Shown here piece after piece: positions 47,092 through 64,000 of a stretch of 64,000 nt of DNA. The position numbers and the translations under genes are program-made. Source of the DNA: an uncultured Spirochaetota bacterium (GTDB lineage Bacteria; Spirochaetota; Spirochaetia; SZUA-6; Fen-1364); the NCBI GenBank assembly GCA_963820525.1, contig CAWGAA010000001.1, positions 1,824,001 to 1,888,000 of the forward strand, in the 5' to 3' direction. The first letter of the stretch is position 1; the number at the start of each line of letters is the position of its first letter. The notes below the pieces were generated by a model. The model ran no database searches. It was not told where the DNA came from and saw only the letters and a program-made list of their open reading frames with translations.

Positions 47092-47517
47092 ATGAATCGG
47101 CTCCTTTCTATATCTGTCGCCATTTTCATCGCGCTCATGGGGGTTACCGTGCCAGCTAGCGCGCAGGAAACCCAGGCCGCGCCGTGGCTGGCTGCGTACA
47201 GTTTTGTCGTACCGGCCAATCCCCTGGGCGAGAACGCCAAGGCAGGCCTCGCAGCGTTCACCCTCACAAACAACATGACGAGCGATGCCCGCGACGTGGT
47301 TATAGAAGTTCTGCCGGGCACCCGTGTCGGTTTCGGCCCTTTTAACCGGGAGCAGGCCGGAAACATCGGCCACGGCTCCTACGCCGTTCTCCACGTCCAG
47401 CTCATGCTGGCCTCCGATGCGAAGGGCTTCCCGCTGAAAATCACCTGGAAGGATGCCGACGGCTCCCCGCGGGCTGCCACTATCGACGCCATCGACATCG
47501 AGGAGGCCCGGAAATGA
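47092..47517 (+). CDS. Small secreted Ig-like protein
   Basis: GAGGAGG RBS, signal peptide (ASA-Q), ATGA overlap with the next gene. Confidence 0.7.
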   Translation: MNRLLSISVAIFIALMGVTVPASAQETQAAPWLAAYSFVVPANPLGENAKAGLAAFTLTNNMTSDARDVVIEVLPGTRVGFGPFNREQAGNIGHGSYAVLHVQLMLASDAKGFPLKITWKDADGSPRAATIDAIDIEEARK

Positions 47518-50500
47518 ACGCGAGAAGAATCGTCATCTCCATGCTCCTGGCCGTCACACTGTCGACGGCCGCCCATGCCCAGGGCGTAGAGCTCAATCCG
47601 GCATACATTACGGGAACGGTCAGCCTGACGAATGCCGTCTATGCGGACAAGGTGTACCTGGCCTACGTGTACGCGTACGCAGACGGTGGCTTTTCGGCCA
47701 ACACTACCGTTGCCGCGGATGGCACATATACGCTCACCGTCAACGCGCCAGCGGATGGAACCGAACGAGCATACACGGTCTATGCCCGGTTCTATCTCAA
47801 GAACGGGATCGAATTCTCAACAGCCGAGCAGAGCGTCGTCGTGACCAAGGATGCCACGGAGCACGCAGATTTTTCAGCCGCCCTTGGCACTCTCACGCTG
47901 AATCTGTCGGCCACGAACGGCAATATCTCTTCTCTCAATTTTCTTATATTCAATAGCTCCGGCTATCCATATCTCTATGCAAGTCTCTATGTAAATCTCT
48001 CACCCCCCGTTTCATCCACCCAATATTCCGTCGATTTTCCCGCTGGAATAGAAGCATACTATGTTTGGGCCTATGTGTACCCGGCGGACAGCGCTTACAC
48101 GCAAGTATTGCTTGAAACACAAGACTTCATTGTGAACCCTGGAGAAACGGTAGAGCAGACCTATTCGGCAACTTTTCCGGAAGCTCCGAAAAAAGCGACC
48201 CTCCAGGGGACGATCACGCTTGATGGAATACCGGGCTCCCTGGAATTCGATCATCACTGGATGTTCTATCCCTACATCTATCTCTATACCAACGGCGGGA
48301 GCTACACGACGGATGATGCAACACCCGGAACCCAGACCATGTACCTCTATACGTATTTCAAAAACAACACGTACATGGCCTGGCCGTACAAATCCATCGT
48401 GCCCGACTCCGATTATGCGAGAATCACGATACTCCCAGGTCAGGTCAACACATTCAGCCCGCGAACATCCCTTGCCGGAGTATTGAGCGGGAGTCTCAAG
48501 TTTACCGGAGTCGCCAGCCTGGCCGACGTACCGGAATACTATCGCGGCATCAGTCTTATCGGCAAGAGCTCAAGCGACGCGTACGGCGGCTATACATGGC
48601 AGTCCTACCTGAATCCCAATACGGGAGATTTCTCGCTGCCTGCCACGGCGGGCACGTGGACGTATGACGGGCTCAGCTACTTTGCATTCCAGAAAAACCT
48701 CACGGATCCCGACAATTACGTCAACTGCAGCATCTACGGCATTTCCGATATCCGCGGCACAGCGGACTATACCATTTCTCAAGGACAATCCATACAAGGC
48801 ATTTCGATCGAGATCCCCACGGGCTCCGTGAAAATCAAGTTCTCGGTCACCGACGGGAGCCTGGTTGCCAGCCCTGGGCTTTCATTCTCATTCAATCAGG
48901 TCGATGCATCCGGACAAACGATGTTCTACGGAAGCGGATCCGCGAGCGGCCCCAGCCAGGCTCTCATTGAAAACCAATCCACCATCGTCGGACCCCCCGG
49001 CACATACACGGTAAATGCATCGGCCCTGGTCAACGGCTCCTGGGTCACCTTCAATCCGCAGCAGGTAATCGTGATCGAGGGCGTCGAACAGGTCCTGGAG
49101 ATCAACGGTCCGTCCCTGAGCGTCTCTTCGCCGCAAGCCGAGCTCTACACCTATGACGATCAGGTCACAGTTTCAGGTATTGCGGATGACGATACGCTGG
49201 TGGCGTCGGTTACCGTAAACGACGCCGTGCAGACATTGACGAGCACGAATAACCCCGAAAGGCCCAAGGAAGTGAGCTTCTCCACTCCCTTCACCCTCGC
49301 CAATGGACCGAACAAGATCGTGGTCAAGGCCGTCGACTCGGCCGGGAAGATCGCCCAGGATACGCGGTTCGTCTACAAGGATCGGGGAGCGCCAACACTC
49401 AGCTTCAAGCCCGTCACCTCTACAACGAACGCCACCACGATAACCGTCGAAGGCACGACAAGCGACGACAATGCTATCACAAAGGTCTTCGTGAATGGTC
49501 TCGCGGTCCCCTTCTCGTGGAGCGGAAACGCGAATGATCCGAATGAGGTCTCCTTCACAACAGAGCTTTCACTCAAAGACGGCCCGAATACCATCAGCGT
49601 AATAGTAGAAGACAACTGCAAACGCACGACATCGGAAGCCCATATCGTTACGAGAGCGGAAAAAGACGAGACGCCGCCGGTCTTCCCGGCGTTGGCGGAC
49701 GTTGTCCTGGAGCAGGCGGGGCCGGAGGGCACAGCCTATGTTCTGCCCGTGCCGAATGTCACCGATGACCAGGATCCCGCCCCAACTGTTGCAAGCAACG
49801 CCCCGGCGGTGTTCCCGGCCGGTCTGACCACCGTGACCTGGACCGCGACGGACGCCTCCGGCAACAGCTCCACCGCCGCTCAGAAAGTGACCGTTGCCGA
49901 CACGACCCCTCCCAGCATCACCGCACCGGCGGATGTCGTCCTGGAATACACCGGCGGGCCCGCCTCGGGAGCGAGCATTGGATATCCGGTCGTGCACGAT
50001 GCGGTGGACCCTTCACCCAATGTCACGGCTGATCTTCCCTCTGTATTTCCGCTGGGGGTGACGAGCGTCACCTGGACGGCTACGGATCATTCCGGCAATT
50101 CAGCTTCCGCCGTTCAGAAGGTGACGGCTGTCGACACCACCCCTCCTGCGACAACCCTTTCCCTTGGAGATCCCAAGGTGGTGAAAAACGGGATACAGTA
50201 CATCTCAGACAAGACGCCCATCACCTTGAGCGCCGTCGATATCGGCTCAGGTGTGGCCGCAATCTACTACAACCTCGGGGCTGGACCCTCCCTCTACAGT
50301 GGGCCCATCACGATTGCAGCCGCCGGCGCCTGCAACCTCCGCTACTATGCCGTTGACGCCGCCGGCAATCGCGAGCCGGAAAAATCGGTTTCGGTGACGG
50401 TGGACAACAAGGGCCCGGAAATAACCGTGGAGGGCGTTGCGGCGGGAATGGTCTACAAGAACGCGGTGACCCCCGTCATCAAGGTTGTCGACCCCATCCT

Positions 50501-51245
50501 TGATTCCTCCTCTGTGACCTTGAACGGAGCAGCCTACACGCAAGGAACGCCCATTGAACAGAACGGCCAGTATACCCTTGCGGTGGCGGCAATCGATCTT
50601 CTGGGCAACACGAGCTCGTATGCCGTATCCTTTGCCATCGCCAAGAGCTCCGTGGAGATGCCGGGGTATTATTTCCTGGAGAATGACAAGGTCAAGATCT
50701 ACTGGCAGGGTGCCGCAGGGGCGGTCGGGTACAACATCTACCTGAACGGAAAGAAAGTAAACAAAGGGTTCCACATGAAGTGGCCGCGCTTGGACCGTGA
50801 AGATCACCTGGTGAAGGACACTTCCTATATCCTGCACGGGATCCACGGCCGGAACGTAATCGCGGTGAAAGCGGTGGGCAAGCGCGGAATGGAGATTGCC
50901 ACCGCCGCCCAGTTCTCTATAGACCAGGCTCAATCCCTTTTCTTGAGCGCGCCGCAATTCAGCCAATGGCATTCGCCAAAGGGAAGCAGCCTGGTGGTTC
51001 ATGGAAGCAACCCGTTCCACCGCGACGTCAAAGCCTATTACGCGGTAATCGATGAACATGGGTATCGGACTGCCTGGATATCTTTGGGCCCCGTGACCCA
51101 GGAGAGCAGGAACCGCTTCTCCTTCAGCGTCCCGGTCACCGATCAGATCCGCGGAAAGCAGCTCGCCCTCAGGGTGACCGGATGGGACGCCAGACAGGGG
51201 AGAGAAGAAGAGACGGGGATGACTATCCGGATCGCGAAAAAGTAG
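47514..51245 (+). CDS. Large secreted multi-Ig/HYR-domain surface protein
   Basis: Signal peptide (AHA-Q), Tyr-rich N-terminal half, two 'L..GPN.I' Ig domains, HYR-like (FP.G.T.VTWTATD.SGN, DTTPP), basic C-terminus. Confidence 0.85.
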   Translation: MNARRIVISMLLAVTLSTAAHAQGVELNPAYITGTVSLTNAVYADKVYLAYVYAYADGGFSANTTVAADGTYTLTVNAPADGTERAYTVYARFYLKNGIEFSTAEQSVVVTKDATEHADFSAALGTLTLNLSATNGNISSLNFLIFNSSGYPYLYASLYVNLSPPVSSTQYSVDFPAGIEAYYVWAYVYPADSAYTQVLLETQDFIVNPGETVEQTYSATFPEAPKKATLQGTITLDGIPGSLEFDHHWMFYPYIYLYTNGGSYTTDDATPGTQTMYLYTYFKNNTYMAWPYKSIVPDSDYARITILPGQVNTFSPRTSLAGVLSGSLKFTGVASLADVPEYYRGISLIGKSSSDAYGGYTWQSYLNPNTGDFSLPATAGTWTYDGLSYFAFQKNLTDPDNYVNCSIYGISDIRGTADYTISQGQSIQGISIEIPTGSVKIKFSVTDGSLVASPGLSFSFNQVDASGQTMFYGSGSASGPSQALIENQSTIVGPPGTYTVNASALVNGSWVTFNPQQVIVIEGVEQVLEINGPSLSVSSPQAELYTYDDQVTVSGIADDDTLVASVTVNDAVQTLTSTNNPERPKEVSFSTPFTLANGPNKIVVKAVDSAGKIAQDTRFVYKDRGAPTLSFKPVTSTTNATTITVEGTTSDDNAITKVFVNGLAVPFSWSGNANDPNEVSFTTELSLKDGPNTISVIVEDNCKRTTSEAHIVTRAEKDETPPVFPALADVVLEQAGPEGTAYVLPVPNVTDDQDPAPTVASNAPAVFPAGLTTVTWTATDASGNSSTAAQKVTVADTTPPSITAPADVVLEYTGGPASGASIGYPVVHDAVDPSPNVTADLPSVFPLGVTSVTWTATDHSGNSASAVQKVTAVDTTPPATTLSLGDPKVVKNGIQYISDKTPITLSAVDIGSGVAAIYYNLGAGPSLYSGPITIAAAGACNLRYYAVDAAGNREPEKSVSVTVDNKGPEITVEGVAAGMVYKNAVTPVIKVVDPILDSSSVTLNGAAYTQGTPIEQNGQYTLAVAAIDLLGNTSSYAVSFAIAKSSVEMPGYYFLENDKVKIYWQGAAGAVGYNIYLNGKKVNKGFHMKWPRLDREDHLVKDTSYILHGIHGRNVIAVKAVGKRGMEIATAAQFSIDQAQSLFLSAPQFSQWHSPKGSSLVVHGSNPFHRDVKAYYAVIDEHGYRTAWISLGPVTQESRNRFSFSVPVTDQIRGKQLALRVTGWDARQGREEETGMTIRIAKK

Positions 51246-51296: not shown

Positions 51297-52274
51297 TCAC
51301 GGCAGGGTTATTCTCACCCAGTCGACGTCGCCCGCGGTGATATACCGATTCAGCTTCCCGCCAACCGTGATCGACGCCGGGTTCGTAGGAACCCCGCCGC
51401 CTCCCGCGGTCGGGTTGTCATCCGACTCATACGGAGCGTCAGACGCATTCTCTGAAGCGAAGAACCACGGCGATGCAACATTAGTTGGCGTGGTCAGCAC
51501 CCTGAGCGCGTACGGGCCCGTCGTCGTGCTCGAGTACCCTCTGATCCTCAGGTAATAAGTTCCTGGGGTAAGCGCTCCCTTGTAGTCGATCATTGCATAG
51601 TCGAACGCATTGTTATCAATGAAGTCCGACCCGTCGCTCCATGCCAGCGCTACGCTCTGGTCCTGGTTGGAGCTCCACAGGTTATAGGAGGTCGCACTGT
51701 TATCCCCCGCCGGCCCGAACAGGTCAATGTAGTCATAGAGGGTCGGCCACGTGGGGATCAGACCTGACGTCCCGGTGGGTTCATACGTTTCGATGAAGAC
51801 CTCATCGTAGATGACCTCGAGAGGCACGCTGGCCGTGTTGTTCCCCTCATTACTCTCCGCCACTACGGAGGTGGCATCAGCCTCTGCAAAGATGTAGTGC
51901 GGCCCCTGTTGATTGTCCTCGGCAGCCACCGAGAAGCTCCCCGGCACGCTGTCCGTCCAGGTCTGCCCCGCGTCGAGAGCGGGGATGTTCGACGTGGCAA
52001 GAATGAGGTCTGTGCTGTCCAGTACCGCGTCCGTGCTCAGGCGGTACCTGAGAACGCTGGCGCCCGCCAGACTGGTTCCGATATTCTCGACTACGGCTCC
52101 AATGCTCCAGGTACCAGTGCGCGCAACGGGAGCTGTAGGCGCCGTGATCGAGGTCACCGTAAGGTCGTCGGTCGCAGGGGCAGAAGAAATCCCGGGTTTC
52201 ATGCAGCCAAACAGGGCCAAGACGAGGGAAGCCGAAAACATGAAAAGAACCATCCGGTGAACATTTTTGCTCAT
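51297..52274 (-). CDS. CARDB-domain lipoprotein
   Basis: Lipobox LFGC; DL.V..I, V.N.G, V.ESNE.NN (CARDB); GTYYLRI and GDVDW (PPC-like). Confidence 0.8.
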   Translation of the reverse strand: MSKNVHRMVLFMFSASLVLALFGCMKPGISSAPATDDLTVTSITAPTAPVARTGTWSIGAVVENIGTSLAGASVLRYRLSTDAVLDSTDLILATSNIPALDAGQTWTDSVPGSFSVAAEDNQQGPHYIFAEADATSVVAESNEGNNTASVPLEVIYDEVFIETYEPTGTSGLIPTWPTLYDYIDLFGPAGDNSATSYNLWSSNQDQSVALAWSDGSDFIDNNAFDYAMIDYKGALTPGTYYLRIRGYSSTTTGPYALRVLTTPTNVASPWFFASENASDAPYESDDNPTAGGGGVPTNPASITVGGKLNRYITAGDVDWVRITLP

Positions 52275-52414
52275 AGAGCCCTCCTTAGCTTGTCCAACAT
52301 CAAATATAGCAGTCAATAGTCCAATTTTCATGCATCTTTCAGCAAATTTCTCCTGCGTGCGGGGTTGGTCGGCTCTTCTTTCCGTGGTATACTTTTAAGC
52401 AACGGGGGTGAAGG

Positions 52415-55400
52415 TTGGTCAAGAGGAAGAAAGTCATATTTCTCGTTGCGCTTCTTGGAATTTCAACGGTTTGCGCGTATGCGCAGAACACTTACACCTG
52501 GAATGGAGCATCCGGCGCAAACTGGAGTAACCCCGGCAACTGGAACGTGAGTCCCGGTCCAGGCACATACCCCGGAGCCGCTGCTGATAATGCTATCGCC
52601 ATTATCAGCAATGGCAATTCACCCAACCTCAACGTATCCCCGGGACAGACCATCTCTCAATTGAATATTTCATCTGGATCATCTCTTACAGCGGGGGCCG
52701 CGCGATTGCTCAGGGTGGCCGGAAACGTGACCACTTCCGGTGCGGGCACTTTCTCATCAAATATCACACTCGCCGTTTCAGGCAATGGCTCGGTCATCGA
52801 CTCGACCATGACTTTGGGGCCGCTTACGATAGCGGGCGCCAGTGGGGACATAATCTCCCTTGCCCAAGCGACGACACTGGCTGGAACTCTCACGATAAAT
52901 ACGGCTACCCTGGATTTGGGCACCAATGCCCTTTCCGTTGGGACCAGTTCCACCGCGGGGAATCTGGTGTTTAGTGGCGGCGGCAAGCTCGACTTCAGCG
53001 GAGCCACAGGAACCAATACGACTTATGTTACGGTCTGGGGAACGATCAGCGGCACCGGCACCATAGATGCATCCGGCTCCGGGTCGCTCAATTGCCATGG
53101 CAACGTCGATCTTACCAACATCACCTACCTGCCAGGGAGCACGAGATTGTGGATCCTCGATCCAGTCAGCCTCACTCCAGGCGCGAGCTCTTTTGCCTGC
53201 GTTCGGATCGGCAGTAACGGACTGAACTATTACGGTGCGTTGACTCTCCAGGGAGATCTCCACATCCTCGGCATAGACCCAACCGGCACTACGGGAGTTT
53301 TCTCTGCCGGCCTCCCGGGGGGCACTCCAAATAATCCAGGGCTCGGCGGCAATAGCTTCAACCTCAACGGCCACAATGTCACCATTGATGACAGCGGCAC
53401 CTATGCCTCGGATAATGTCGTGACCTTTGTGAATATCCCCGGCGCGAACCTCACCGCTCCCGCCGCCTCCACCATCACGTTCACGGGGGCCTCTACTCTC
53501 ACCAGCAATTCGGCCAACGGCTGCGTGCTTGGGTCCATCAGCATCGGCGCCGGCGGAAACCTGACCCTCGCTGATGCGCTCGCTCTCAATGGCGGTATTT
53601 CAGTCGCGGCGGGCGCCGGAACGAGCACTTTCAATATGGCCGGTTTTACGGTCACGGTGGCCGGAAATGTCAATTTGACCAACCTCGACAACTTCACCGC
53701 GCCAGGCCTCTACATCTTCGACGGCGCCACGACCCTTACCGTCCCCGCGGGAGCCGCCTACGCCTTCACCAACATCCAGATCGGCGATACGGCCGGCGCC
53801 GCCAACGGCTCACTCACACTGGCTAGCGCCATCATCGTCAACGGCACCATCACCATCGGTGGCACCACCGGTACCACCACTTTCAACGCCGCAGCATTCA
53901 CCGTCACCGTGGCGGGAAACGTCACCCTCACCGGCCTGGACTCCTTCACAACCACCGGCACCTTCATCTTCGCCGGCACCACGACCCTTACCGTCCCCGC
54001 GGGAGCCGCCTACGCCTTCACCAACATCCAGATCGGCGATACGGCCGGCGCCGCCAACGGCTCACTCACACTGGCGAGCGCCATCATCGTCAACGGCACC
54101 ATCACCATCGGTGGCACCACCGGTACCACCACTTTCAACGCCGCAGCATTCACCGTCACCGTGGCGGGAAACGTCACCCTCACCGGCCTGGACTCCTTCA
54201 CAACCACCGGCACCTTCATCTTCGCCGGCACCACGACCCTTACCGTCCCCGCGGGAGCCGCCTACGCCTTCACCAACATCCAGATCGGTGCCACCGCCGG
54301 CGCCGCCAACGGCTCACTCACACTGGCTAGCGCCATCATCGTCAACGGCACCATCACCATCGGTGGCACCACCGGTACCACCACTTTCAACGCCGCAGCA
54401 TTCACCGTCACCGTGGCGGGAAACGTCACCCTCACCGGCCTGGACTCCTTCACAACCACCGGCACCTTCATCTTCGCCGGCACCACGACCCTCACCGTCC
54501 CCGCGGGAGCCGCCTACGCCTTCACCAACATCCAGATCGGTGCCACCGCCGGCGCCGCCAACGGCTCACTCATACTGGCTAGCGCCATCATCGTCAACGG
54601 CACCATCACCATCGGTGGCACCACCGGTACCACCACTTTCAACGCCGCAGCATTCACCGTCACCGTGGCGGGAAACGTCACCCTCACCGGCCTGGACTCC
54701 TTCACAACCACCGGCACCTTCATCTTCGCCGGCACCACGACCCTTACCGTCCCCGCGGGAGCCGCCTACGCCTTCACCAACATCCAGATCGGTGCCACCG
54801 CCGGCGCCGCCAACGGCTCACTCACACTGGCAAGTGACATCATCGTCAACGGCACCATCACCATCGGTGGCACCACCGGTACCACCACTTTCAACGCCGC
54901 AGCATTCACCGTCACCGTGGCGGGAAACGTCACCCTCACCGGCCTGGACTCCTTCACAACCACCGGCACCTTCATCTTCGCCGGCACCACGACCCTTACC
55001 GTCCCCGCGGGAGCCGCCTACGCCTTCACCAACATCCAGATCGGTGCCACCGCCGGCGCCGCCAACGGCTCACTCATACTGGCTAGCGCCATCATCGTCA
55101 ACGGCACCATCACCATCGGTGGCACCACCGGTACCACCACTTTCAACGCCGCAGCATTCACCGTCACCGTGGCGGGAAACGTCACCCTCACCGGCCTGGA
55201 CTCCTTCACAACCACCGGCACCTTCATCTTCGCCGGCACCACGACCCTTACCGTCCCCGCGGGAGCCGCCTACGCCTTCACCAACATCCAGATCGGTGCC
55301 ACCGCCGGCGCCGCCAACGGCTCACTCATACTGGCAAGTGACATCATCGTCAACGGCACCATCACCATCGGTGGCACCACCGGTACCACCACTTTCAACG

Positions 55401-58400
55401 CCGCAGCATTCACCGTCACCGTGGCGGGAAACGTCACCCTCACCGGCCTGGACTCCTTCACAACCACCGGCACCTTCATCTTCGCCGGCACCACGACCCT
55501 TACCGTCCCCGCGGGAGCCGCCTACGCCTTCACCAACATCCAGATCGGTGCCACCGCCGGCGCCGCCAACGGCTCACTCATACTGGCGAGCGCCATCATC
55601 GTCAACGGCACCATCACCATCGGTGGCACCACCGGTACCACCACTTTCAACGCCGCAGCATTCACCGTCACCGTGGCGGGAAACGTCACCCTCACCGGCC
55701 TGGACTCCTTCACAACCACCGGCACCTTCATCTTCGCCGGCACCACGACCCTTACCGTCCCCGCGGGAGCCGCCTACGCCTTCACCAACATCCAGATCGG
55801 TGCCACCGCCGGCGCCGCCAACGGCTCACTCACACTGGCAAGTGACATCATCGTCAACGGCACCATCACCATCGGTGGCACCACCGGTACCACCACTTTC
55901 AACGCCGCAGCATTCACCGTCACCGTGGCGGGAAACGTCACCCTCACCGGCCTGGACTCCTTCACAACCACCGGCACCTTCATCTTCGCCGGCACCACGA
56001 CCCTTACCGTCCCCGCGGGAGCCGCCTACGCCTTCACCAACATCCAGATCGGTGCCACCGCCGGCGCCGCCAACGGCTCACTCATACTGGCTAGCGCCAT
56101 CATCGTCAACGGCACCATCACCATCGGTGGCACCACCGGTACCACCACTTTCAACGCCGCAGCATTCACCGTCACCGTGGCGGGAAACGTCACCCTCACC
56201 GGCCTGGACTCCTTCACAACCACCGGCACCTTCATCTTCGCCGGCACCACGACCCTTACCGTCCCCGCGGGAGCCGCCTACGCCTTCACCAACATCCAGA
56301 TCGGTGCCACCGCCGGCGCCGCCAACGGCTCACTCACACTGGCAAGTGACATCATCGTCAACGGCACCATCACCATCGGTGGCACCACCGGTACCACCAC
56401 TTTCAACGCCGCAGCATTCACCGTCACCGTGGCGGGAAACGTCACCCTCACCGGCCTGGACTCCTTCACAACCACCGGCACCTTCATCTTCGCCGGCACC
56501 ACGACCCTTACCGTCCCCGCGGGAGCCGCCTACGCCTTCACCAACATCCAGATCGGTGCCACCGCCGGCGCCGCCAACGGCTCACTCATACTGGCTAGCG
56601 CCATCATCGTCAACGGCACCATCACCATCGGTGGCACCACCGGTACCACCACTTTCAACGCCGCAGCATTCACCGTCACCGTGGCGGGAAACGTCACCCT
56701 CACCGGCCTGGACTCCTTCACAACCACCGGCACCTTCATCTTCGCCGGCACCACGACCCTTACCGTCCCCGCGGGAGCCGCCTACGCCTTCACCAACATC
56801 CAGATCGGTGCCACCGCCGGCGCCGCCAACGGCTCACTCACACTGGCTAGCGACATCATCGTCAACGGCACCATCACCATCGGTGGCACCACCGGTACCA
56901 CCACTTTCAACGCCGCAGCATTCACCGTCACCGTGGCGGGAAACGTCACCCTCACCGGCCTGGACTCCTTCACAACCACCGGCACCTTCATCTTCGCCGG
57001 CACCACGACCCTTACCGTCCCCGCGGGAGCCGCCTACGCCTTCACCAACATCCAGATCGGTGCCACCGCCGGCGCCGCCAACGGCTCACTCACACTGGCA
57101 AGTGACATCATCGTCAACGGCACCATCACCATCGGTGGCACCACCGGTACCACCACTTTCAACGCCGCAGCATTCACCGTCACCGTGGCGGGAAACGTCA
57201 CCCTCACCGGCCTGGACTCCTTCACAACCACCGGCACCTTCATCTTCGCCGGCACCACGACCCTTACCGTCCCCGCGGGAGCCGCCTACGCCTTCACCAA
57301 CATCCAGATCGGTGCCACCGCCGGCGCCGCCAACGGCTCACTCATACTGGCAAGTGACATCATCGTCAACGGCACCATCACCATCGGTGGCACCACCGGT
57401 ACCACCACTTTCGTCACCTCGGGCCACACCGTCACCGCGGCAAGTACCGTTAACCTCACGGGCCTCGATATACTCACCATTGACGCGACATCTTTATTCA
57501 TCTTCGCCGGCACCACAACCCTAACTGTCCCGACGGGGCTGTCGCTCGAGAACATCCAGCTCGGCGCAAGCGTCACCCCGGGCAGCGTCACTCTGGGGAG
57601 CGCGCTAAATGTTGTACTGGATATCTCCATCTCCGTTGCAGGATCCGTGCTGAACACGAACAACCTCGACATTTCGGTAGGCAGGAATTGGAGTAATTCA
57701 AACGATGCGTCGGGATTCACCGCCGGAAATGGGACCGTCGCTTTCGCCGGAACCGCAACAGCCAAGATCTCGGGAAATACGACCTTTTACAACTTCACAT
57801 GCATCCCAGGCGTCGGCGGCAAGACCATCCAGTTTACAGCCGGCACCGAGCAGACCATCACCAACAACCTCACGATTACGGGAACGGCGAACAACCTGGT
57901 CAACCTGATAAGCACATCTCTCGGCTTTGCCTGGACGATAACCAGGACGGGAACCGGGACCGTTACGCTCGACTTTATCCTTGTCAGCGACAGTAATGTG
58001 GGAGCTGCGTCGAGCGACCTCACGGCTCTGGACAGCAGAAATGACGGAAGAAACGACGACACGGTGTCTCCGCGCTGGATCTTTACGCCCAGGCTGGTGA
58101 TATGGGACGGCTCGGACAGCATGGACTGGAACACGGGAGCAAACTGGGATACCGGCTATCAGCCGAATACCACGGATAATGTCCGCATCGCCAATGCCGG
58201 CTTCCAGCCGGCGACGCTCGCGACATCGACGACGATCGTGGACCTGACCATCGACACTGGCGCGAGGGTCGCCACCAACAACTTATCCCTGACGGTGACC
58301 GGGGCCTTGAGCTGCTCGGGCACCCTTGACGGCTCGGCTTCCCCCGCCGCCATCAGCGTCACAGGGGACACCACGGCCTCAGGCAGGATCAATTTGAACG

Positions 58401-61400
58401 GCGGCAACTTCTCCACCAACAACCTCACCGTGAGCGGCGTCACCCCCAACGGCCTGGTGGCCTCCGCCTCGGAGACCATCACGGTGGGCGGCAACATCGA
58501 CTTCTCCAACGCCGGGGACAATTTCACCCAGGCCACAAGCCTCATCGTCATGACGGGGGCCTCGGACCCGGCCACCATCAACGCAACCGTAGAGGACTTC
58601 TTCAACGACCTTCAGATCAACAAGACCACGGGGGGGCAGCGGGTGCAGCTGCTCACCAACCTCTTCCTGGCCAACGGCGCCGGAGACCTGACCATGAGCC
58701 GAGGCACCCTGCAGCTCAACGGCTTCACGCTTCGGTTGGGCACCAACCTCTCCATGAGCTCGGCCACCGCCGCCACCATCGCCATCGGCACGGGCACCCT
58801 GGACGGGGCCACCAACGGCAGGTCCGTTTCCATCAGCAGCGCGGCGGCCGCCATCACCCAAACCACCGGCACCATGAGCTGCGCCGGGCTCTCCATGACA
58901 AACGGCACCTACACCTGCACAGGCAACTCCATCCTCAACTCCAGCGGAAGCGTCTCGGTGACCGGCGGCACCTTCTCCGAGGGCACCTCCACCCTCACCA
59001 TGAGCGGCGCCTCCACCACGATCCGCTTCGCCCAGAGCCCGCTTCTCCAGCCCCATGACCTGACCATCAGCGCCGCCGCCCCCGGGGTGAGCATAACCGG
59101 GGAGAACCTGACCGTGGGGAACAACTTGAGCGTTTCCTCCGGCGGGGTGTTCGCCACCAACAACTTCTCCCTGACGGTGAACGTCGGCCTGAGCTGCTCG
59201 GGCACCCTTGACGGCTCGGCTTCCCCCGCCGCCATCAGCGTCACAGGGGACACCACGGCCTCAGGCAGGATCAATTTGAACGGCGGCAACTTCTCCACCA
59301 ACAACCTCACCGTGAGCGGCGTCACCCCCAACGGCCTGGTGGCCTCCGCCTCGGAGACCATCACGGTGGGCGGCAACATCGACTTCTCCAACGCCGGGGA
59401 CAATTTCACCCAGGCCACAAGCCTCATCGTCATGACGGGGGCCTCGGACCCCGCCACCATCAACGCAACCGGAGAGGACTTCTTCAACGACCTTCAGATC
59501 AACAAGACCACGGGGGCGCAGCGGGTGCAGCTGCTCACCAACCTCTTCCTGGCCAACGGCGCCGGAGACCTGACCATGAGCCGAGGCACCCTGCAGCTCA
59601 ACGGCTTCACGCTTCGGTTGGGCACCAACCTCTCCATGAGCTCGGCCACCGCCGCCACCATCGCCATCGGCACGGGCACCCTGGACGGGGCCACCAACGG
59701 CAGGTCCGTTTCCATCAGCAGCGCGGCGGCCGCCATCACCCAAACCACCGGCACCATGAGCTGCGCCGGGCTCTCCATGACAAACGGCACCTACACCTGC
59801 ACAGGCAACTCCATCCTCAACTCCAGCGGAAGCGTCTCGGTGACCGGCGGCACCTTCTCCGAGGGCACCTCCACCCTCACCATGAGCGGCGCCTCCACCA
59901 CGATCCGCTTCGCCCAGAGCCCGCTTCTCCAGCCCCATGACCTGACCATCAGCGCCGCCGCCCCCGGGGTGAGCATAACCGGGGAGAACCTGACCGTGGG
60001 GAACAACTTGAGCGTTTCCTCCGGCGGGGTGTTCGCCACAGGCGGCTTCTCCCTGACGGTGAACGTCGGCCTGAGCTGCTCGGGCACCCTCACAGGCTCG
60101 GCCTCCCCCCAGCAGATCAGCGTCACAGGTGACACCACCGCCTCCGGCAGGATCAACTTGAACGGCGGCAACTTCTCCACCACCAACCTCACCGTGAGCG
60201 GCGTCCCCGGCCTGGTGGCCTCCGCCTCGGAGACCATCACGGTGGGCGGCAACATCGACTTCTCCAACGCCGGAGACAACTTCACCCAGGCTACAAGCCT
60301 CATCGTCATGACGGGGGCCTCGGACCCCGCCACCATCAACGCAACCGTAGAGGACTTCTTCAACGACCTTCAGATCAACAAGACCACGGGGGGGCAGCGG
60401 GTGCAGCTGCTCACCAACCTCTTCCTGGCCAACGGCGCCGGAGACCTGACCATGAGCCGAGGCACCCTGCAGCTCAACGGCTTCACGCTTCGGTTGGGCA
60501 CCAACCTCTCCATGAGCTCGGCCACCGCCGCCACCATCGCCATCGGCACGGGCACCCTGGACGGGGCCACCAACGGTAGGACCGTTTCCATCAGCAGCGC
60601 GGCGGCCGCCATCACCCAAACCACCGGCACCATGAGCTGCGCCGGGCTCTCCATGACAAACGGCACCTACACCTGCACAGGCAACTCCATCCTCAACTCC
60701 AGCGGAAGCGTCTCGGTGACCGGCGGCACCTTCTCCGAGGGCACCTCCACCCTCACCATGAGCGGCGCCTCCACCACGATCCGCTTCGCCCAGAGCCCGC
60801 TTCTCCAGCCCCATGACCTGACCATCAGCGCCGCCGCCCCCGGGGTGAGCATAACCGGGGAGAACCTGACCGTGGGGAACAACTTGAGCGTTTCCTCCGG
60901 CGGGGTGTTCGCCACCAACAACTTCTCCCTGACGGTGACCGGGGCCTTGAGCTGCTCGGGCACCCTCACAGGCTCGGCCTCCCCCCAGCAGATCAGCGTC
61001 ACAGGTGACACCACCGCCTCCGGCAGGATCAACTTGAACGGCGGCAACTTCTCCACCACCAACCTCACCGTGAGCGGCGTCCCCGGCCTGGTGGCCTCCG
61101 CCTCGGAGACCATCACGGTGGGCGGCAACATCGACTTCTCCAACGCCGGAGACAACTTCACCCAGGCTACAAGCCTCATCGTCATGACGGGGGCCTCGGA
61201 CCCCGCCACCATCAACGCAACCGTAGAGGACTTCTTCAACGACCTTCAGATCAACAAGACCACGGGGGGGCAGCGGGTGCAGCTGCTCACCAACCTCTTC
61301 CTGGCCAACGGCGCCGGAGACCTGACCATGAGCCGAGGCACCCTGCAGCTCAACGGCTTCACGCTTCGGTTGGGCACCAACCTCTCCATGAGCTCGGCCA

Positions 61401-64000
61401 CCGCCGCCACCATCGCCATCGGCACGGGCACCCTGGACGGGGCCACCAACGGCAGGTCCGTTTCCATCAGCAGCGCGGCGGCCGCCATCACCCAAACCAC
61501 CGGCACCATGAGCTGCGCCGGGCTCTCCATGACAAACGGCACCTACACCTGCACAGGCAACTCCATCCTCAACTCCAGCGGAAGCGTCTCGGTGACCGGC
61601 GGCACCTTCTCCGAGGGCACCTCCACCCTCACCATGAGCGGCGCCTCCACCACGATCCGCTTCGCCCAGAGCCCGCTTCTCCAGCCCCATGACCTGACCA
61701 TCAGCGCCGCCGCCCCCGGGGTGAGCATAACCGGGGAGAACCTGACCGTGGGGAACAACTTGAGCGTTTCCTCCGGCGGGGTGTTCGCCACCAACAACTT
61801 CTCCCTGACGGTGAACGTCGGCCTGAGCTGCTCGGGCACCCTTGACGGCTCGGCTTCCCCCGCCGCCATCAGCGTCACAGGGGACACCACGGCCTCAGGC
61901 AGGATCAACTTGAACGGCGGCAACTTCTCCACCACCAACCTCACCGTGAGCGGCGTCCCCGGCCTGGTGGCCTCCGCCTCGGAGACCATCACGGTGGGCG
62001 GCAACATCGACTTCTCCAACGCCGGGGACAATTTCACCCAGGCCACAAGCCTCATCGTCATGACGGGGGCCTCGGACCCCGCCACCATCAACGCAACCGG
62101 AGAGGACTTCTTCAACGACCTTCAGATCAACAAGACCACGGGGGCGCAGCGGGTGCAGCTGCTCACCAACCTCTTCCTGGCCAACGGCGCCGGAGACCTG
62201 ACCATGAGCCGAGGCACCCTGCAGCTCAACGGCTTCACGCTTCGGTTGGGCACCAACCTCTCCATGAGCTCGGCCACCGCCGCCACCATCGCCATCGGCA
62301 CGGGCACCCTGGACGGGGCCACCAACGGCAGGTCCGTTTCTATCAGCAGCGCGGCGGCCGCCATCACCCAGGGAACCGGAACGCTCAGCACGCCGGCGTT
62401 GAGCGTGAGCGCCGGCGCCTATACGATAACGGGCACGGCCACGGTGAGCATCGGGGCCGGAGGCTTGAGCCAGACTGGGGGCACCTTCACGGCAGACGCC
62501 GCCGCCATCACCTCGAGCGGAAGCGTTTCGGTGACCGCCGGCACCTTCACGGAAGGAAGCTCCACCCTCACGATGGATACCGCCGGCACCACAATTCATT
62601 TCACGCCGTCTCCGCTGCACCAGCCCCACAACCTGATCATCACCGCCGGAGGGGCGGGTGTGACAATCGCCAGCGAAGCCCTTAATGTCGGAGGAGATAT
62701 CACTATTGCTACGGGCGGGATATTCGGGACCAACACCTTCAGCTTAGCCGTGACGGGCAACGCAGATGTTTCGGGCACCCTCACCGGCTCGGCCTCCCCC
62801 GCAGCCATCAGCGTCACGGGTGACACCACCGCCTCCGGCACGATCAACCTCAACAATGGAGACTTCTCGACGAACAACCTCACAGTGAGCGGCGTCGCCC
62901 CGGCGAACGGGCTCGTGGCTTCCGGCGCCGAGATCATAACGGTCAAAGAAAACCTCGACCTCTCGGCGGTGGGGACCAATTACACGCCGGCCTCGAGCAC
63001 GATCACAATGGGAGACGGAACGCTAAATGGCACCATCAATTGCCCGCCGACGGAGGAGACGTTCTACGAGCTCGAAATCTCCAAAGGCGTCCTGGCCCGG
63101 ATCGTCAGCCTGCAGACAGACATCATCATCACCCACTCACTCACCATAATCAGCGGGACTCTCAGCGCGGGAACCCACACGATAACGATGCGGGGAGTCA
63201 CCTGGGACAACCAGGGAAGCAAGACGGGCCTCGGGACCTTCAACCCGGGAACGGGAACGGTTTTCTTCACCACGACGAGCGCGATCACAATCAGCGGAAG
63301 CAATTCCTGGTACAACTTCAACTGCACGACGGACGGCAAGGCCTTCACCTTCGAGAACCTGCAGACCCAGACCATTCTTTCCGGCGGGAACCTTACCCTC
63401 CTTGCTTCGGGGCCAACCGCAAGGATAACGCTGACAAGCGATTTGCAGGACCCAACGGTGAACCCATCGTACCCACCCACGCCTCCGCAGTATGCCGGGC
63501 AGTGGTATATCACGATTACGGTGGGCGCGTCCGCGAGCATCGATTTCGTCAACGTGTCGTACAGCTTCGCCACTATAACGATCACCCCCGGGCCGGGATG
63601 TGTGGACGGTCTTCACAATACGAATTGGCAGTTTTTCATCCCCATAGTGGCGAGTTGGACCCTGGACACGAACAACGACGGACGAATAGACAGGATCAGG
63701 GTGCAAGTACAGGTGGGAACCCAGCTCAGCGACGACTTCACGGGCCTTGATGTGACTATCGTAGGAAATGCATACGAAGTATCCGGATACGGCACCGCCG
63801 CAGGACCGGTAGTTGGGGCGGGCGACGACGTGTTCGATATCCTCCTTGACGAGGGGACCCACGAAGACACGAGCGCACTTCCCCAATGGACGCTGAATTC
63901 AAACTCGACGCTCTATGGGAAGGTGGGAGGCGCCCTGGTGGAGTATGGGACAAAGGTGTACGCGCCGAACGACGGCTCGCGGCCGGTGATCACCTATACG
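52415..64000 (+). CDS. Giant repetitive secreted surface protein/adhesin (>3860 aa), truncated by window end
   Basis: TTG 52415: MVKRKKVIFLVALLGISTVCAYA|QNTYTWNGASGANWSNPGNW...; frame checked at several points and open to ...APNDGSRPVITYT at 64000; absent from the ORF track, consistent with no stop in the window. Confidence 0.9.
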   Translation, partial: MVKRKKVIFLVALLGISTVCAYAQNTYTWNGASGANWSNPGNWNVSPGPGTYPGAAADNAIAIISNGNSPNLNVSPGQTISQLNISSGSSLTAGAARLLRVAGNVTTSGAGTFSSNITLAVSGNGSVIDSTMTLGPLTIAGASGDIISLAQATTLAGTLTINTATLDLGTNALSVGTSSTAGNLVFSGGGKLDFSGATGTNTTYVTVWGTISGTGTIDASGSGSLNCHGNVDLTNITYLPGSTRLWILDPVSLTPGASSFACVRIGSNGLNYYGALTLQGDLHILGIDPTGTTGVFSAGLPGGTPNNPGLGGNSFNLNGHNVTIDDSGTYASDNVVTFVNIPGANLTAPAASTITFTGASTLTSNSANGCVLGSISIGAGGNLTLADALALNGGISVAAGAGTSTFNMAGFTVTVAGNVNLTNLDNFTAPGLYIFDGATTLTVPAGAAYAFTNIQIGDTAGAANGSLTLASAIIVNGTITIGGTTGTTTFNAAAFTVTVAGNVTLTGLDSFTTTGTFIFAGTTTLTVPAGAAYAFTNIQIGDTAGAANGSLTLASAIIVNGTITIGGTTGTTTFNAAAFTVTVAGNVTLTGLDSFTTTGTFIFAGTTTLTVPAGAAYAFTNIQIGATAGAANGSLTLASAIIVNGTITIGGTTGTTTFNAAAFTVTVAGNVTLTGLDSFTTTGTFIFAGTTTLTVPAGAAYAFTNIQIGATAGAANGSLILASAIIVNGTITIGGTTGTTTFNAAAFTVTVAGNVTLTGLDSFTTTGTFIFAGTTTLTVPAGAAYAFTNIQIGATAGAANGSLTLASDIIVNGTITIGGTTGTTTFNAAAFTVTVAGNVTLTGLDSFTTTGTFIFAGTTTLTVPAGAAYAFTNIQIGATAGAANGSLILASAIIVNGTITIGGTTGTTTFNAAAFTVTVAGNVTLTGLDSFTTTGTFIFAGTTTLTVPAGAAYAFTNIQIGATAGAANGSLILASDIIVNGTITIGGTTGTTTFNAAAFTVTVAGNVTLTGLDSFTTTGTFIFAGTTTLTVPAGAAYAFTNIQIGATAGAANGSLILASAIIVNGTITIGGTTGTTTFNAAAFTVTVAGNVTLTGLDSFTTTGTFIFAGTTTLTVPAGAAYAFTNIQIGATAGAANGSLTLASDIIVNGTITIGGTTGTTTFNAAAFTVTVAGNVTLTGLDSFTTTGTFIFAGTTTLTVPAGAAYAFTNIQIGATAGAANGSLILASAIIVNGTITIGGTTGTTTFNAAAFTVTVAGNVTLTGLDSFTTTGTFIFAGTTTLTVPAGAAYAFTNIQIGATAGAANGSLTLASDIIVNGTITIGGTTGTTTFNAAAFTVTVAGNVTLTGLDSFTTTGTFIFAGTTTLTVPAGAAYAFTNIQIGATAGAANGSLILASAIIVNGTITIGGTTGTTTFNAAAFTVTVAGNVTLTGLDSFTTTGTFIFAGTTTLTVPAGAAYAFTNIQIGATAGAANGSLTLASDIIVNGTITIGGTTGTTTFNAAAFTVTVAGNVTLTGLDSFTTTGTFIFAGTTTLTVPAGAAYAFTNIQIGATAGAANGSLTLASDIIVNGTITIGGTTGTTTFNAAAFTVTVAGNVTLTGLDSFTTTGTFIFAGTTTLTVPAGAAYAFTNIQIGATAGAANGSLILASDIIVNGTITIGGTTGTTTFVTSGHTVTAASTVNLTGLDILTIDATSLFIFAGTTTLTVPTGLSLENIQLGASVTPGSVTLGSALNVVLDISISVAGSVLNTNNLDISVGRNWSNSNDASGFTAGNGTVAFAGTATAKISGNTTFYNFTCIPGVGGKTIQFTAGTEQTITNNLTITGTANNLVNLISTSLGFAWTITRTGTGTVTLDFILVSDSNVGAASSDLTALDSRNDGRNDDTVSPRWIFTPRLVIWDGSDSMDWNTGANWDTGYQPNTTDNVRIANAGFQPATLATSTTIVDLTIDTGARVATNNLSLTVTGALSCSGTLDGSASPAAISVTGDTTASGRINLNGGNFSTNNLTVSGVTPNGLVASASETITVGGNIDFSNAGDNFTQATSLIVMTGASDPATINATVEDFFNDLQINKTTGGQRVQLLTNLFLANGAGDLTMSRGTLQLNGFTLRLGTNLSMSSATAATIAIGTGTLDGATNGRSVSISSAAAAITQTTGTMSCAGLSMTNGTYTCTGNSILNSSGSVSVTGGTFSEGTSTLTMSGASTTIRFAQSPLLQPHDLTISAAAPGVSITGENLTVGNNLSVSSGGVFATNNFSLTVNVGLSCSGTLDGSASPAAISVTGDTTASGRINLNGGNFSTNNLTVSGVTPNGLVASASETITVGGNIDFSNAGDNFTQATSLIVMTGASDPATINATGEDFFNDLQINKTTGAQRVQLLTNLFLANGAGDLTMSRGTLQLNGFTLRLGTNLSMSSATAATIAIGTGTLDGATNGRSVSISSAAAAITQTTGTMSCAGLSMTNGTYTCTGNSILNSSGSVSVTGGTFSEGTSTLTMSGASTTIRFAQSPLLQPHDLTISAAAPGVSITGENLTVGNNLSVSSGGVFATGGFSLTVNVGLSCSGTLTGSASPQQISVTGDTTASGRINLNGGNFSTTNLTVSGVPGLVASASETITVGGNIDFSNAGDNFTQATSLIVMTGASDPATINATVEDFFNDLQINKTTGGQRVQLLTNLFLANGAGDLTMSRGTLQLNGFTLRLGTNLSMSSATAATIAIGTGTLDGATNGRTVSISSAAAAITQTTGTMSCAGLSMTNGTYTCTGNSILNSSGSVSVTGGTFSEGTSTLTMSGASTTIRFAQSPLLQPHDLTISAAAPGVSITGENLTVGNNLSVSSGGVFATNNFSLTVTGALSCSGTLTGSASPQQISVTGDTTASGRINLNGGNFSTTNLTVSGVPGLVASASETITVGGNIDFSNAGDNFTQATSLIVMTGASDPATINATVEDFFNDLQINKTTGGQRVQLLTNLFLANGAGDLTMSRGTLQLNGFTLRLGTNLSMSSATAATIAIGTGTLDGATNGRSVSISSAAAAITQTTGTMSCAGLSMTNGTYTCTGNSILNSSGSVSVTGGTFSEGTSTLTMSGASTTIRFAQSPLLQPHDLTISAAAPGVSITGENLTVGNNLSVSSGGVFATNNFSLTVNVGLSCSGTLDGSASPAAISVTGDTTASGRINLNGGNFSTTNLTVSGVPGLVASASETITVGGNIDFSNAGDNFTQATSLIVMTGASDPATINATGEDFFNDLQINKTTGAQRVQLLTNLFLANGAGDLTMSRGTLQLNGFTLRLGTNLSMSSATAATIAIGTGTLDGATNGRSVSISSAAAAITQGTGTLSTPALSVSAGAYTITGTATVSIGAGGLSQTGGTFTADAAAITSSGSVSVTAGTFTEGSSTLTMDTAGTTIHFTPSPLHQPHNLIITAGGAGVTIASEALNVGGDITIATGGIFGTNTFSLAVTGNADVSGTLTGSASPAAISVTGDTTASGTINLNNGDFSTNNLTVSGVAPANGLVASGAEIITVKENLDLSAVGTNYTPASSTITMGDGTLNGTINCPPTEETFYELEISKGVLARIVSLQTDIIITHSLTIISGTLSAGTHTITMRGVTWDNQGSKTGLGTFNPGTGTVFFTTTSAITISGSNSWYNFNCTTDGKAFTFENLQTQTILSGGNLTLLASGPTARITLTSDLQDPTVNPSYPPTPPQYAGQWYITITVGASASIDFVNVSYSFATITITPGPGCVDGLHNTNWQFFIPIVASWTLDTNNDGRIDRIRVQVQVGTQLSDDFTGLDVTIVGNAYEVSGYGTAAGPVVGAGDDVFDILLDEGTHEDTSALPQWTLNSNSTLYGKVGGALVEYGTKVYAPNDGSRPVITYT
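53728..57411 (+). repeat. 252-bp tandem repeat, about 14.6 copies (84 aa)
   Basis: Unit AFTNIQIG(D/A)TAGAANGSL(T/I)LAS(A/D)IIVNGTITIGGTTGTTTFNAAAFTVTVAGNVTLTGLDSFTTTGTFIFAGTTTLTVPAGAAY; period matches shadow ORFs at 53758+252n. Confidence 0.95.
58271..62369 (+). repeat. 882/876-bp tandem repeat, about 4.7 copies (294/292 aa)
   Basis: Unit starts at 58271, 59153, 60035, 60911, 61787; 6-bp indel VTPNG vs VPG; diverged further copy to about 62960. Confidence 0.93.

Follow-up and report, generated by a model that had tools for sequence, protein, structure and literature searches.

The giant gene and its repeat arrays

The window analysed here is a 64,000-nucleotide stretch of contig C1 of a spirochaete genome (G000), and a single giant gene runs off its end. 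The frame starts at a TTG (position 52,415, plus strand), just 3' of a purine-rich run that by eye resembles a ribosome-binding site, and is free of stops through the window end. A first-pass annotation had described a giant (>3860 aa) protein whose frame stays open to the window end; extension along the contig bore this out, with a stop at window coordinate 65,251, a product of 4,278 aa, and a terminal sorting-like domain in the added part. The exact 4,278-aa protein is already recorded whole at NCBI/ENA, and the gene was probably absent from the ORF track because its frame runs off the window. The N-terminus, where a signal peptide had been proposed, reads by eye as one of Sec type, with a basic n-region, a hydrophobic core and an A-x-A site, i.e., the kind of signal carried by type IX (T9SS) type A cargo.

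A frameshift or assembly artefact was rejected on the grounds of the open frame, the whole recorded protein and metagenome contigs: in three of four conspecific metagenome runs (wetland or sediment) a single contig bridges the module junction gaplessly, and in the fourth run two overlapping contigs span it. Several long frames nested in the gene (53,859-57,524 on the plus strand, 59,261-61,690 on the minus strand and a 190-aa series) are presumably repeat shadows, and Pfam matches of the repeats to GDH2_N and UL20A were below cut-off and disregarded. The GC3 of the gene is 0.83 against a genome GC of 0.60; a promoter scan was uninformative.

Table 1. Features of the giant gene and of its candidate partners, in window positions or, where marked G000:C1, contig positions
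Feature	Position	Strand	Basis
Giant gene, in-window part (aa 1-3862 of 4,278)	52415..64000	+	frame translation
Sec-type signal peptide, aa 1-23	52415..52483	+	read by eye from sequence
Module 1 N-cap (W-x-G...W...NW) and first non-repetitive rungs, aa 24-430	52484..53704	+	motifs, homolog alignment
Array 1, 15 near-identical 84-aa units, putative β-helix rungs	53705..57484	+	repeat finding, motif positions
Module 1 end cap (ISGNTTFYNFTC...PRWIF), predicted end of first β-helix	57617..58090	+	motifs, homolog alignment, model
Module 2 N-cap	58091..58351	+	motifs, homolog alignment, model
Array 2	58238..63136	+	motif positions, repeat identity; homology to modelled β-helix
Module 2 end cap (ISGSNSWYNFNC...TNWQFF)	63137..63637	+	motifs, homolog alignment, model
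Conserved ~435-aa β-rich base region (aa 3742-4177), start only	63638..64000	+	opens with DTNNDGRID; predicted tandem Ig-like domains
Terminal FlgD-Ig / T9SS type-A-like sorting domain, aa 4178-4278	G000:C1:1888946-1889248	+	PF13860, TIGR04183, PorU CTD match
Giant gene end, outside window	G000:C1:1889251 (window-equivalent 65,251)	+	contig extension
UPF0164 barrel with TPR tail, PorV/PorQ likeness	G000:C1:104079-105317		PF03687, NF033709
SprA-like pore gene, 1,637-aa product	G000:C1:488665-493578		ESM Atlas lead, ortholog's predicted fold

The motifs and both repeat arrays of the first-pass annotation were all found in place. In module 1, TWNGASGANWSNPGNW stands at aa 28 (52,496) and ISGNTTFYNFTC at aa 1785 (57,767), with GKTIQF at 57,818 and PRWIF at 58,070; in module 2, IWDGSDSMDWNTGANW stands at aa 1896 (58,100) and ISGSNSWYNFNC at aa 3626 (63,290), with GKAFTF at 63,335 and TNWQFF at 63,620. 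The base region, which is cut by the window end, carries the DTNNDGRID loop at aa 3751 (63,665), Ca-binding-like by sequence and conserved across the homolog alignment. Array 1 consists of 15 anchor copies of its 84-aa unit (252 bp x 14.7 at 98%). Array 2 comprises four units of 292-294 aa (96-98% DNA identity), followed by one of 313 aa with about 78% and by a degenerate sixth, and went unlisted by the tandem-repeat finder because its period exceeds the 500-bp limit of that program. Ser and Thr make up 28% of the stalk. The module 1 N-cap, as seen in homologs, bears a weak likeness to G8/Amnionless.

Homologs of the giant carry Spirochaetia or Treponema labels, which marks the genome as spirochaetal, and the giant's last 539 aa are 44-58% identical to 17 of 25 matches, from the spirochaete family named automatically 'FlgD immunoglobulin-like domain containing protein' (PF13860). 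The giant is a member of this family with unusually long, near-identical arrays; neither function nor export route of the family is described in the literature searched. A related-locus search gave no confirmed relative, which is a sensitivity failure given the homologs from the single-protein search. In close homologs the plan of N-cap, rungs and end cap occurs two to three times before the conserved base, and in distant homologs the end caps number as many as 12-14. Conservation among homologs extends to the base and the tail but not to the stalk. The proposal that repeat copy number sets the length of the stalk would give only part of the picture: the number of whole modules also varies among homologs. 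A Pfam scan of the giant gave no recognisable tip domain.

The junction between the modules is found well beyond this family. A search with the junction piece returned 1,212 clusters with E no higher than 0.001, and among the best 150 of these, 17 end in the giant's tail and 133, many of them fragments, do not; of 22 scanned, two have a TPS domain and two a G8 domain. By sequence comparison, the capped β-helix bead is a widespread, as yet unnamed, general building block, and since capped modules also occur in proteins with other export signals, the stalk is uninformative on the export route. Phage neighbours of the giant's pieces in the ESM Atlas (low recognition) were dropped because PHROGs gave no match for any of the five pieces.

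Predicted stalk fold and the C-terminal domain

Structure prediction was run on a natural compact two-module homolog, P0002 (aa 80-1270, 1,191 aa; 25-row alignment), which shares 56% identity with the giant's last 539 aa and 42% with the junction piece. In the resulting model (pLDDT 79.6) the first 670 residues form almost only short strands, and VIA-align matched them to right-handed β-helices (best Z 16.3, rmsd 4.1, 265 aligned); the ranges spanned by at least a fifth of the rows, i.e., model residues 69-355 and 359-666, split at the WxF / W-x-G module junction. The β-helix result rests on VIA, because Foldseek of the 1,191-aa model gave low-TM multi-domain matches with no clear β-helix. Homology (E 1.9e-15) links the giant's 293-aa unit with the second module of the model, and its 84-aa unit is not represented there, so that the right-handed parallel β-helix is seen in the model of the homolog and not in folds of the giant's own repeats. 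Of the two capped solenoid modules proposed earlier, the solenoid fold with two helices was recovered in the homolog, and the 84-aa unit stays outside the model. As judged from this model, the giant's stalk very probably consists of two β-helical modules. The rise per rung of a β-helix is 0.48 nm; at 20-25 residues per rung, the predicted rod would be roughly 70-90 nm long by estimate.

The same fold (Z 11-16, rmsd about 4, about 230-270 aligned) is found in autotransporter passengers and TpsA proteins (VacA p55, antigen 43, EtpA), in pectate-lyase-fold enzymes and in tailspikes, which is no proof of shared function. Unlike the passengers and TpsA proteins, the giant has no C-terminal autotransporter barrel or TPS domain, is predicted to set separately capped helices in series and carries its putative export tag at the C-terminus.

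The last 101 aa match PF13860 (36.6 bits against a cut-off of 27) and, searched alone, the T9SS type A profile TIGR04183 (26.5 bits against 23); within a 539-aa fragment the tail scores 22 on TIGR04183, below cut-off, and of three other tails two pass (24.1 and 24.2) and one fails (22.5). An HMM search of the non-repeat C-terminus had been suggested with FlgD-Ig/OmpA-linked giant proteins in mind: FlgD-Ig proved right for the tail, but the FlgD-Ig/OmpA protein is encoded by a gene of its own, which is distributed differently. Flagellar FlgD profiles outscore the T9SS profile on the tail, and the flagellar hook cap FlgD equivalog, a full-length model of ~200 aa, gives 35.8 bits against the 230 required; a separate 205-aa frame with an FlgD-Ig domain lies at G000:C2:310682. 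The modelled tail of P0002 aligns with the PorU CTD (VIA, Z 9.8, rmsd 2.6, 88 residues, 23% identity). Among 28 aligned tails the average column identity is 60% and the ends fall within 0-2 residues of one another, the domain being strictly terminal in homologs. A nearly invariant glycine in these 28 tails occupies the position expected of the essential T9SS loop glycine, and we read it as the probable counterpart of the T9SS motif in the available portion of PMC11285876.

The giant carries the sole terminal copy of this tail in G000 (E 8.5e-43), the next match being internal (0.038); FlgD-Ig domains are also internal to several other G000 proteins, OmpA fusions included. The tail gave no match to the T9SS type B profile (TIGR04131/CHU_C), and Pfam gave none to a C-terminal 12-strand autotransporter (type Va) barrel or an N-terminal TpsA (type Vb) TPS domain in the giant, which ends Ig-like. 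The giant would work like a T9SS type A cargo and is not an autotransporter, a TpsA or an FlgD. The structure given in the first-pass annotation is right, and the C-terminus missing from the window supplies the proposed export logic.

A predicted SprA-like pore that shares the tail's distribution, and a candidate PorV-like barrel

The earlier statement that no secretion partner is visible in the window is true; candidate partners are encoded elsewhere in the genome, and the tag lies 1 kb past the window. In G000 there is no linkage among the genes for the giant, the pore and the barrel. The pore protein of G000 has no Pfam or NCBIfam match, and searches for a sequence link to SprA (TIGR04189, PF14349, PDB and NCBIfam) were all blank. 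As a lead, the ESM Atlas ties it to SprA_N clusters at 0.95, and UniRef names two of its orthologs SprA, one of which shares 26% identity with the G000 protein across 830 columns. The predicted fold (pLDDT 85.5) of an ortholog of 1,137 aa, P0132, labelled at source as a Treponema denticola hypothetical protein, placed three SprA structures at the top of a Foldseek search (E 3.6e-16 to 1.3e-12, TM 0.48-0.50), and VIA aligned it to 6h3i over 883 residues (Z 20.1, rmsd 6.9; next best Z 16.0). A T9SS SprA/Sov pore is thus recognised in the predicted fold of the ortholog and not by sequence profile. In G000 a single extra base shifts the frame of the pore gene some 20 codons short of its end; this base is missing in all three runs that cover the site, the fourth lacking coverage there, which points to an assembly error without proving it.

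The candidate carrier scores 144.9 bits on PF03687 (UPF0164; cut-off 21.4) and 55.5 on the PorV/PorQ profile NF033709, i.e., below its cut-off of 90. A helical-repeat protein of 1,017 aa is encoded back to back with it; the two genes are adjacent in 17 of 19 loci fetched, one more being cut by the fetched range, and this ~1,000-aa protein is a candidate periplasmic partner. A ~530-aa gene lies 3' of the barrel in many loci. The downstream convergent gene of 397 aa was considered as a dedicated release protease and rejected as specific because it stands beside the giant in none of 29 other loci and is kept in 8 of 20 giant-less genomes. In G000 (96.7% complete), GldM, GldN and GldL gave no match at cut-offs that no control genome passed. 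Likewise without a positive control, GldK gave partial matches far below cut-off in G000, the PorU sortase three short matches near the profile end and none above cut-off, and the PorP/SprF barrel (TIGR03519) no match. As motor, ring and sortase were not found, the system cannot be filed as a full T9SS.

The distribution of the parts was surveyed in 300 genomes across the phylum, presence being scored with a single protein as query and with profiles of the tail and of the pore. Among the 62 same-class genomes (families f2-f11), tail and SprA-like gene are both present in the same 38 and both missing in 24, with none discordant, and presence splits inside genera (11/18, 1/2 and 1/2). The tail is single-copy in 37 of the 38 positive genomes, in frames of 1,100-7,462 aa, some of which are probably cut by contig ends. 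Follow-up searches covered 58 genomes, i.e., the 38 positives and 20 of the 24 negatives. All of the genes sought occur in 38/38 positives: the barrel is found in 3/20 negatives, the helical-repeat neighbour in the same 3/20, and the downstream gene in 8/20. The FlgD-Ig/OmpA protein, rejected as a partner and used as a control instead, is kept near full-length in 10/20.

An RpoB tree was built with FastTree from 55 genomes (G000 and 54 of the 58; G081, G135, G247 and G259 were omitted), with support that is weaker where branches are long. Genomes lacking tail and pore form eight clades on this tree. In independent pairs, the pore agrees with the tail in 7/7 (p 0.016), the barrel in 5.5/7 (median p 0.06, short of significance) and the FlgD-Ig/OmpA control in 2/7. 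The distribution of the barrel suggests a carrier role; as it is kept in 3/20 genomes that lack pore and giant, it would there have another role or be a remnant. Phylum-wide, the pore gene is present in 91 of 93 tail-positive genomes versus 54 of 207 tail-negative ones. One cargo per genome is usual in the class sampled but does not hold throughout: genomes of some distant families encode 12-15 tail-bearing proteins, and those of the family to which the window belongs encode 1-4 giants (positive in 30 of 41 genomes, with G000 among them and many of them incomplete).

Proposed export route and alternatives

Compared with T9SS type A cargo and its SprA/Sov pore and PorV carrier in Flavobacterium johnsoniae and Porphyromonas gingivalis (PDB 6H3I, 8GL6, 8GL8; TIGR04183), the giant is alike in having a signal peptide and a terminal Ig-like sorting domain, and the genome in encoding a pore of predicted SprA fold, a PorV/FadL-family barrel as candidate carrier and a large helical-repeat periplasmic candidate, SprE being a TPR protein in the sections of PMC10994853 that were available. 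The systems differ in that the spirochaete pore is about 1,140-1,740 aa among the loci read whereas the best-matching SprA chains exceed 2,100 modelled residues, that GldL, GldM, GldN, PorU and PorP were not found in the spirochaete genome, that there is usually one cargo per genome, and that the barrel has a TPR tail. The PorU-PorV and PorZ-PorQ pairs resemble the giant in the uncleaved tail that we propose for it, and the tail as modelled in the homolog aligns with the PorU CTD, but the giant has a predicted 3,700-aa β-helical stalk in place of a protease or propeller body. SprB-SprF (type B) is similar as a giant surface protein on a dedicated barrel, as proposed here, but the giant's tail is type A-like, its barrel belongs to the PorV/UPF0164 family, the genes are unlinked and no gliding motor genes were found.

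We consider it probable that the giant, with a signal peptide, two modules predicted to be capped β-helices and a type IX-type tail, is the main cargo of a reduced spirochaete type IX-like export system. On this reading, the signal peptide would direct Sec export into the periplasm, where each module would fold as its own capped right-handed β-helix, as predicted from the homolog, to give the 70-90 nm rod. Homology and co-loss suggest that the tail would then bind the PorV/UPF0164-like barrel, at the point where the SprA-like pore has its lateral gate. In Flavobacterium the tail binds carrier loops in the pore and leaves with the carrier by the lateral gate, as described in the accessible text of PMC10994853. 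Since no PorU sortase was found, the tail is probably uncleaved and would remain on the barrel, anchoring the rod, which would point outward N-terminus first. The rod may act in adhesion or as a spacer, and both expansion of the repeats and the gain of whole modules would alter its reach. Of the parts of this reading, export through the SprA-like pore is quite likely and adhesion as the main role is evenly balanced, while lasting anchorage on the barrel is put forward with slightly less assurance. Release needs energy in Flavobacterium, according to the same partial text (PMC10994853), and the failure to find a motor counts against the proposed route. So do the blank sequence searches for SprA, the score of the barrel below the PorV/PorQ cut-off, the higher FlgD scores of the tail, the missing linkage of the three genes and the frameshift in the G000 pore gene.

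The failure to find a motor would also suit a tail that is an ordinary FlgD-type Ig domain, with the giant periplasmic or exported otherwise (type II, vesicles) and co-loss with the SprA-like gene reflecting shared lifestyle. FlgD-Ig domains inside several other G000 proteins, OmpA fusions included, and the higher scores of FlgD profiles fit this account, but we regard it as improbable: none of 62 genomes is discordant, two control genes survive in many of the genomes that lack tail and pore (FlgD-Ig/OmpA 10/20, downstream gene 8/20), and the tail domain is strictly terminal. If the route is accepted, the giant might instead be released, or be a structural part of the system, like PorZ and PorU with their uncleaved tails, and not an adhesin; the base would do the work and the stalk would be a variable sheath or spacer. 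One tail copy in 37/38 same-class genomes is unusual for an ordinary cargo, base and tail are conserved where the stalk is not, PorU is a listed structural match of the tail, and no tip domain is recognisable. We hold this to be unlikely, though less so than an ordinary FlgD-type domain, given the 1-4 paralogs per genome in the window's own family and the recent near-identical expansions of the stalk repeats, which would be typical of surface structures under length selection. A giant T9SS cargo on a carrier barrel is also the design of SprB in the available part of PMC12618676, which deals with carrier specificity, and the cargo here is single per genome; the pore-exported, barrel-held giant could thus be a moving adhesin that is dragged along as the cell or its outer sheath rotates, which would make the cell crawl over surfaces; with no type B tail match, no PorP/SprF-family barrel and no Gld motor genes found in G000, this is very improbable.

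Extending the preferred reading, i.e., export of the giant as a type IX-like cargo, we suggest more tentatively than any of its parts that most free-living and host-associated Spirochaetia, oral treponemes included, may possess a minimal type IX system of four genes (for an SprA-type pore, a PorV/UPF0164 carrier, a helical-repeat partner and one giant cargo) that works free of the Gld motor and plants one tunable β-helical filament; the treponemal 'FadL-like' barrels would be its carriers, orphaned where pore and filament were lost. The co-occurring barrel is a member of these UPF0164 or 'PorV/FadL-like' barrels (PF03687). A Brachyspira barrel of the PorV/PorQ family has been read as leaning to FadL-like transport of hydrophobic molecules (10.1101/2025.01.03.631275, as far as available), and five PorV/FadL-like proteins are described in T. 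pallidum, SprA going unmentioned in the main text (PMC13749626). T9SS genes are stated to be absent outside the FCB group (PMC11285876) and T9SS to be restricted to one phylum (PMC13721041), in the excerpts of these two sources, and the literature searched, subscription papers and supplements aside, holds no report of a spirochaete SprA or of the giant's family; PMC12236494 offered nothing relevant. The proposed SprA-type route would lie in a phylum said to lack T9SS. If true, a one-cargo spirochaete version in which no motor is detectable would ask whether the SprA pore works without the Gld energy chain, which the available passages of PMC10994853 hold necessary for release. Spirochaetes would also gain a route for very large surface proteins, UPF0164 barrels would be offered a function, and the 1,137-aa ortholog would provide a compact SprA for structural work.

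Tail, pore and barrel in other genomes

In distant spirochaete families, five genomes (G004, G019, G032, G043 and G052) each hold 12–15 matches to the giant's type of terminal tail, together with the SprA-like gene. Judged from these sequence matches, they carry a predicted many-cargo version of the pairing. In three other genomes (G088, G160 and G204), the PorV/UPF0164 barrel is present with its helical neighbour, and both the pore and the giant are absent. G088, with a genome of 1.14 Mb, encodes five barrel paralogs, the same number as the PorV/FadL-like proteins of T. pallidum listed in PMC13749626.

Frame and size of the SprA-like gene

Relative to conspecific runs, the assembly of the source genome (G000) has one surplus base at L005:8705 (G000:C1 near 488,700; 3/3 covering runs) and another at L005:8415 (G000:C1 near 488,415; 4/4 covering runs), which displace the frame where the SprA-like gene ends and where the next gene starts. 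Both are likely assembly errors. In 4 of 16 loci, a frame that we take from its sequence to encode a DinB-like DNA polymerase, the name also given by the JGI label on one family member, continues with no intervening stop into the SprA-like gene's signal peptide; in other loci the two genes adjoin only. The continuous frame may be a gene fusion or may contain an internal start. The size of the SprA-like protein falls stepwise, from 1,460 (L053) to 1,262 (L055) and 1,137 aa (L054), with the loss of part of the central region and retention of both ends.

Neighbours of the giant and other large proteins

The 397-aa protein convergent to the giant has a Cys...His motif, which presumably recalls transglutaminase-like proteases; profile searches returned zero matches to back this likeness. 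Its gene is widespread and, in 4/19 loci, lies close to the PorV-like gene. Elsewhere in G000, the FlgD-Ig/OmpA protein is Lsa66-like with a score below the cut-off, and its first ~330 aa form a frame of their own in many genomes. Five more giant frames (2,140–4,770 aa) mostly have a signal-peptide-like start; the terminal tail of the 4,278-aa giant, sought in these five, was found in none. A group of proteins with capped β-helix modules like those of the giant (P0215, P0221, P0230, P0239, P0241, P0253, P0272, P0289 and others) share a short C-terminal motif of Gly, a hydrophobic run and mostly a terminal Arg, which may perhaps be a further sorting signal.

Coordinates of the features (C, contig of G000; L, fetched locus)
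Feature	Location	Strand	Position
Metallo-β-lactamase-fold/cNMP-binding/hemerythrin fusion	window 44217-46802	+	neighbour of giant
1,243-aa secreted Ig/OmpL47-repeat protein	window 47514-51245	+	neighbour of giant
CARDB lipoprotein-like gene	window 51297-52331	-	neighbour of giant
397-aa secreted protein	L001:15262-16455	-	immediately past window end
FlgD-Ig (six) and OmpA protein	G000:C1:82188-86186 (L002:6188-10186)		
Further giant frames	C1:2323645-2337957, C3:213294-231618, C1:1368813-1383241, C1:1794916-1802952, C2:462749-473041		
DinB-like frame continuous with SprA-like gene	L046:5563-11643, L047:7093-13044, L048:7433-13381, L052:7657-13674		
Short SprA-like genes	L053:7239-11621, L055:7304-11092, L054:6962-10375
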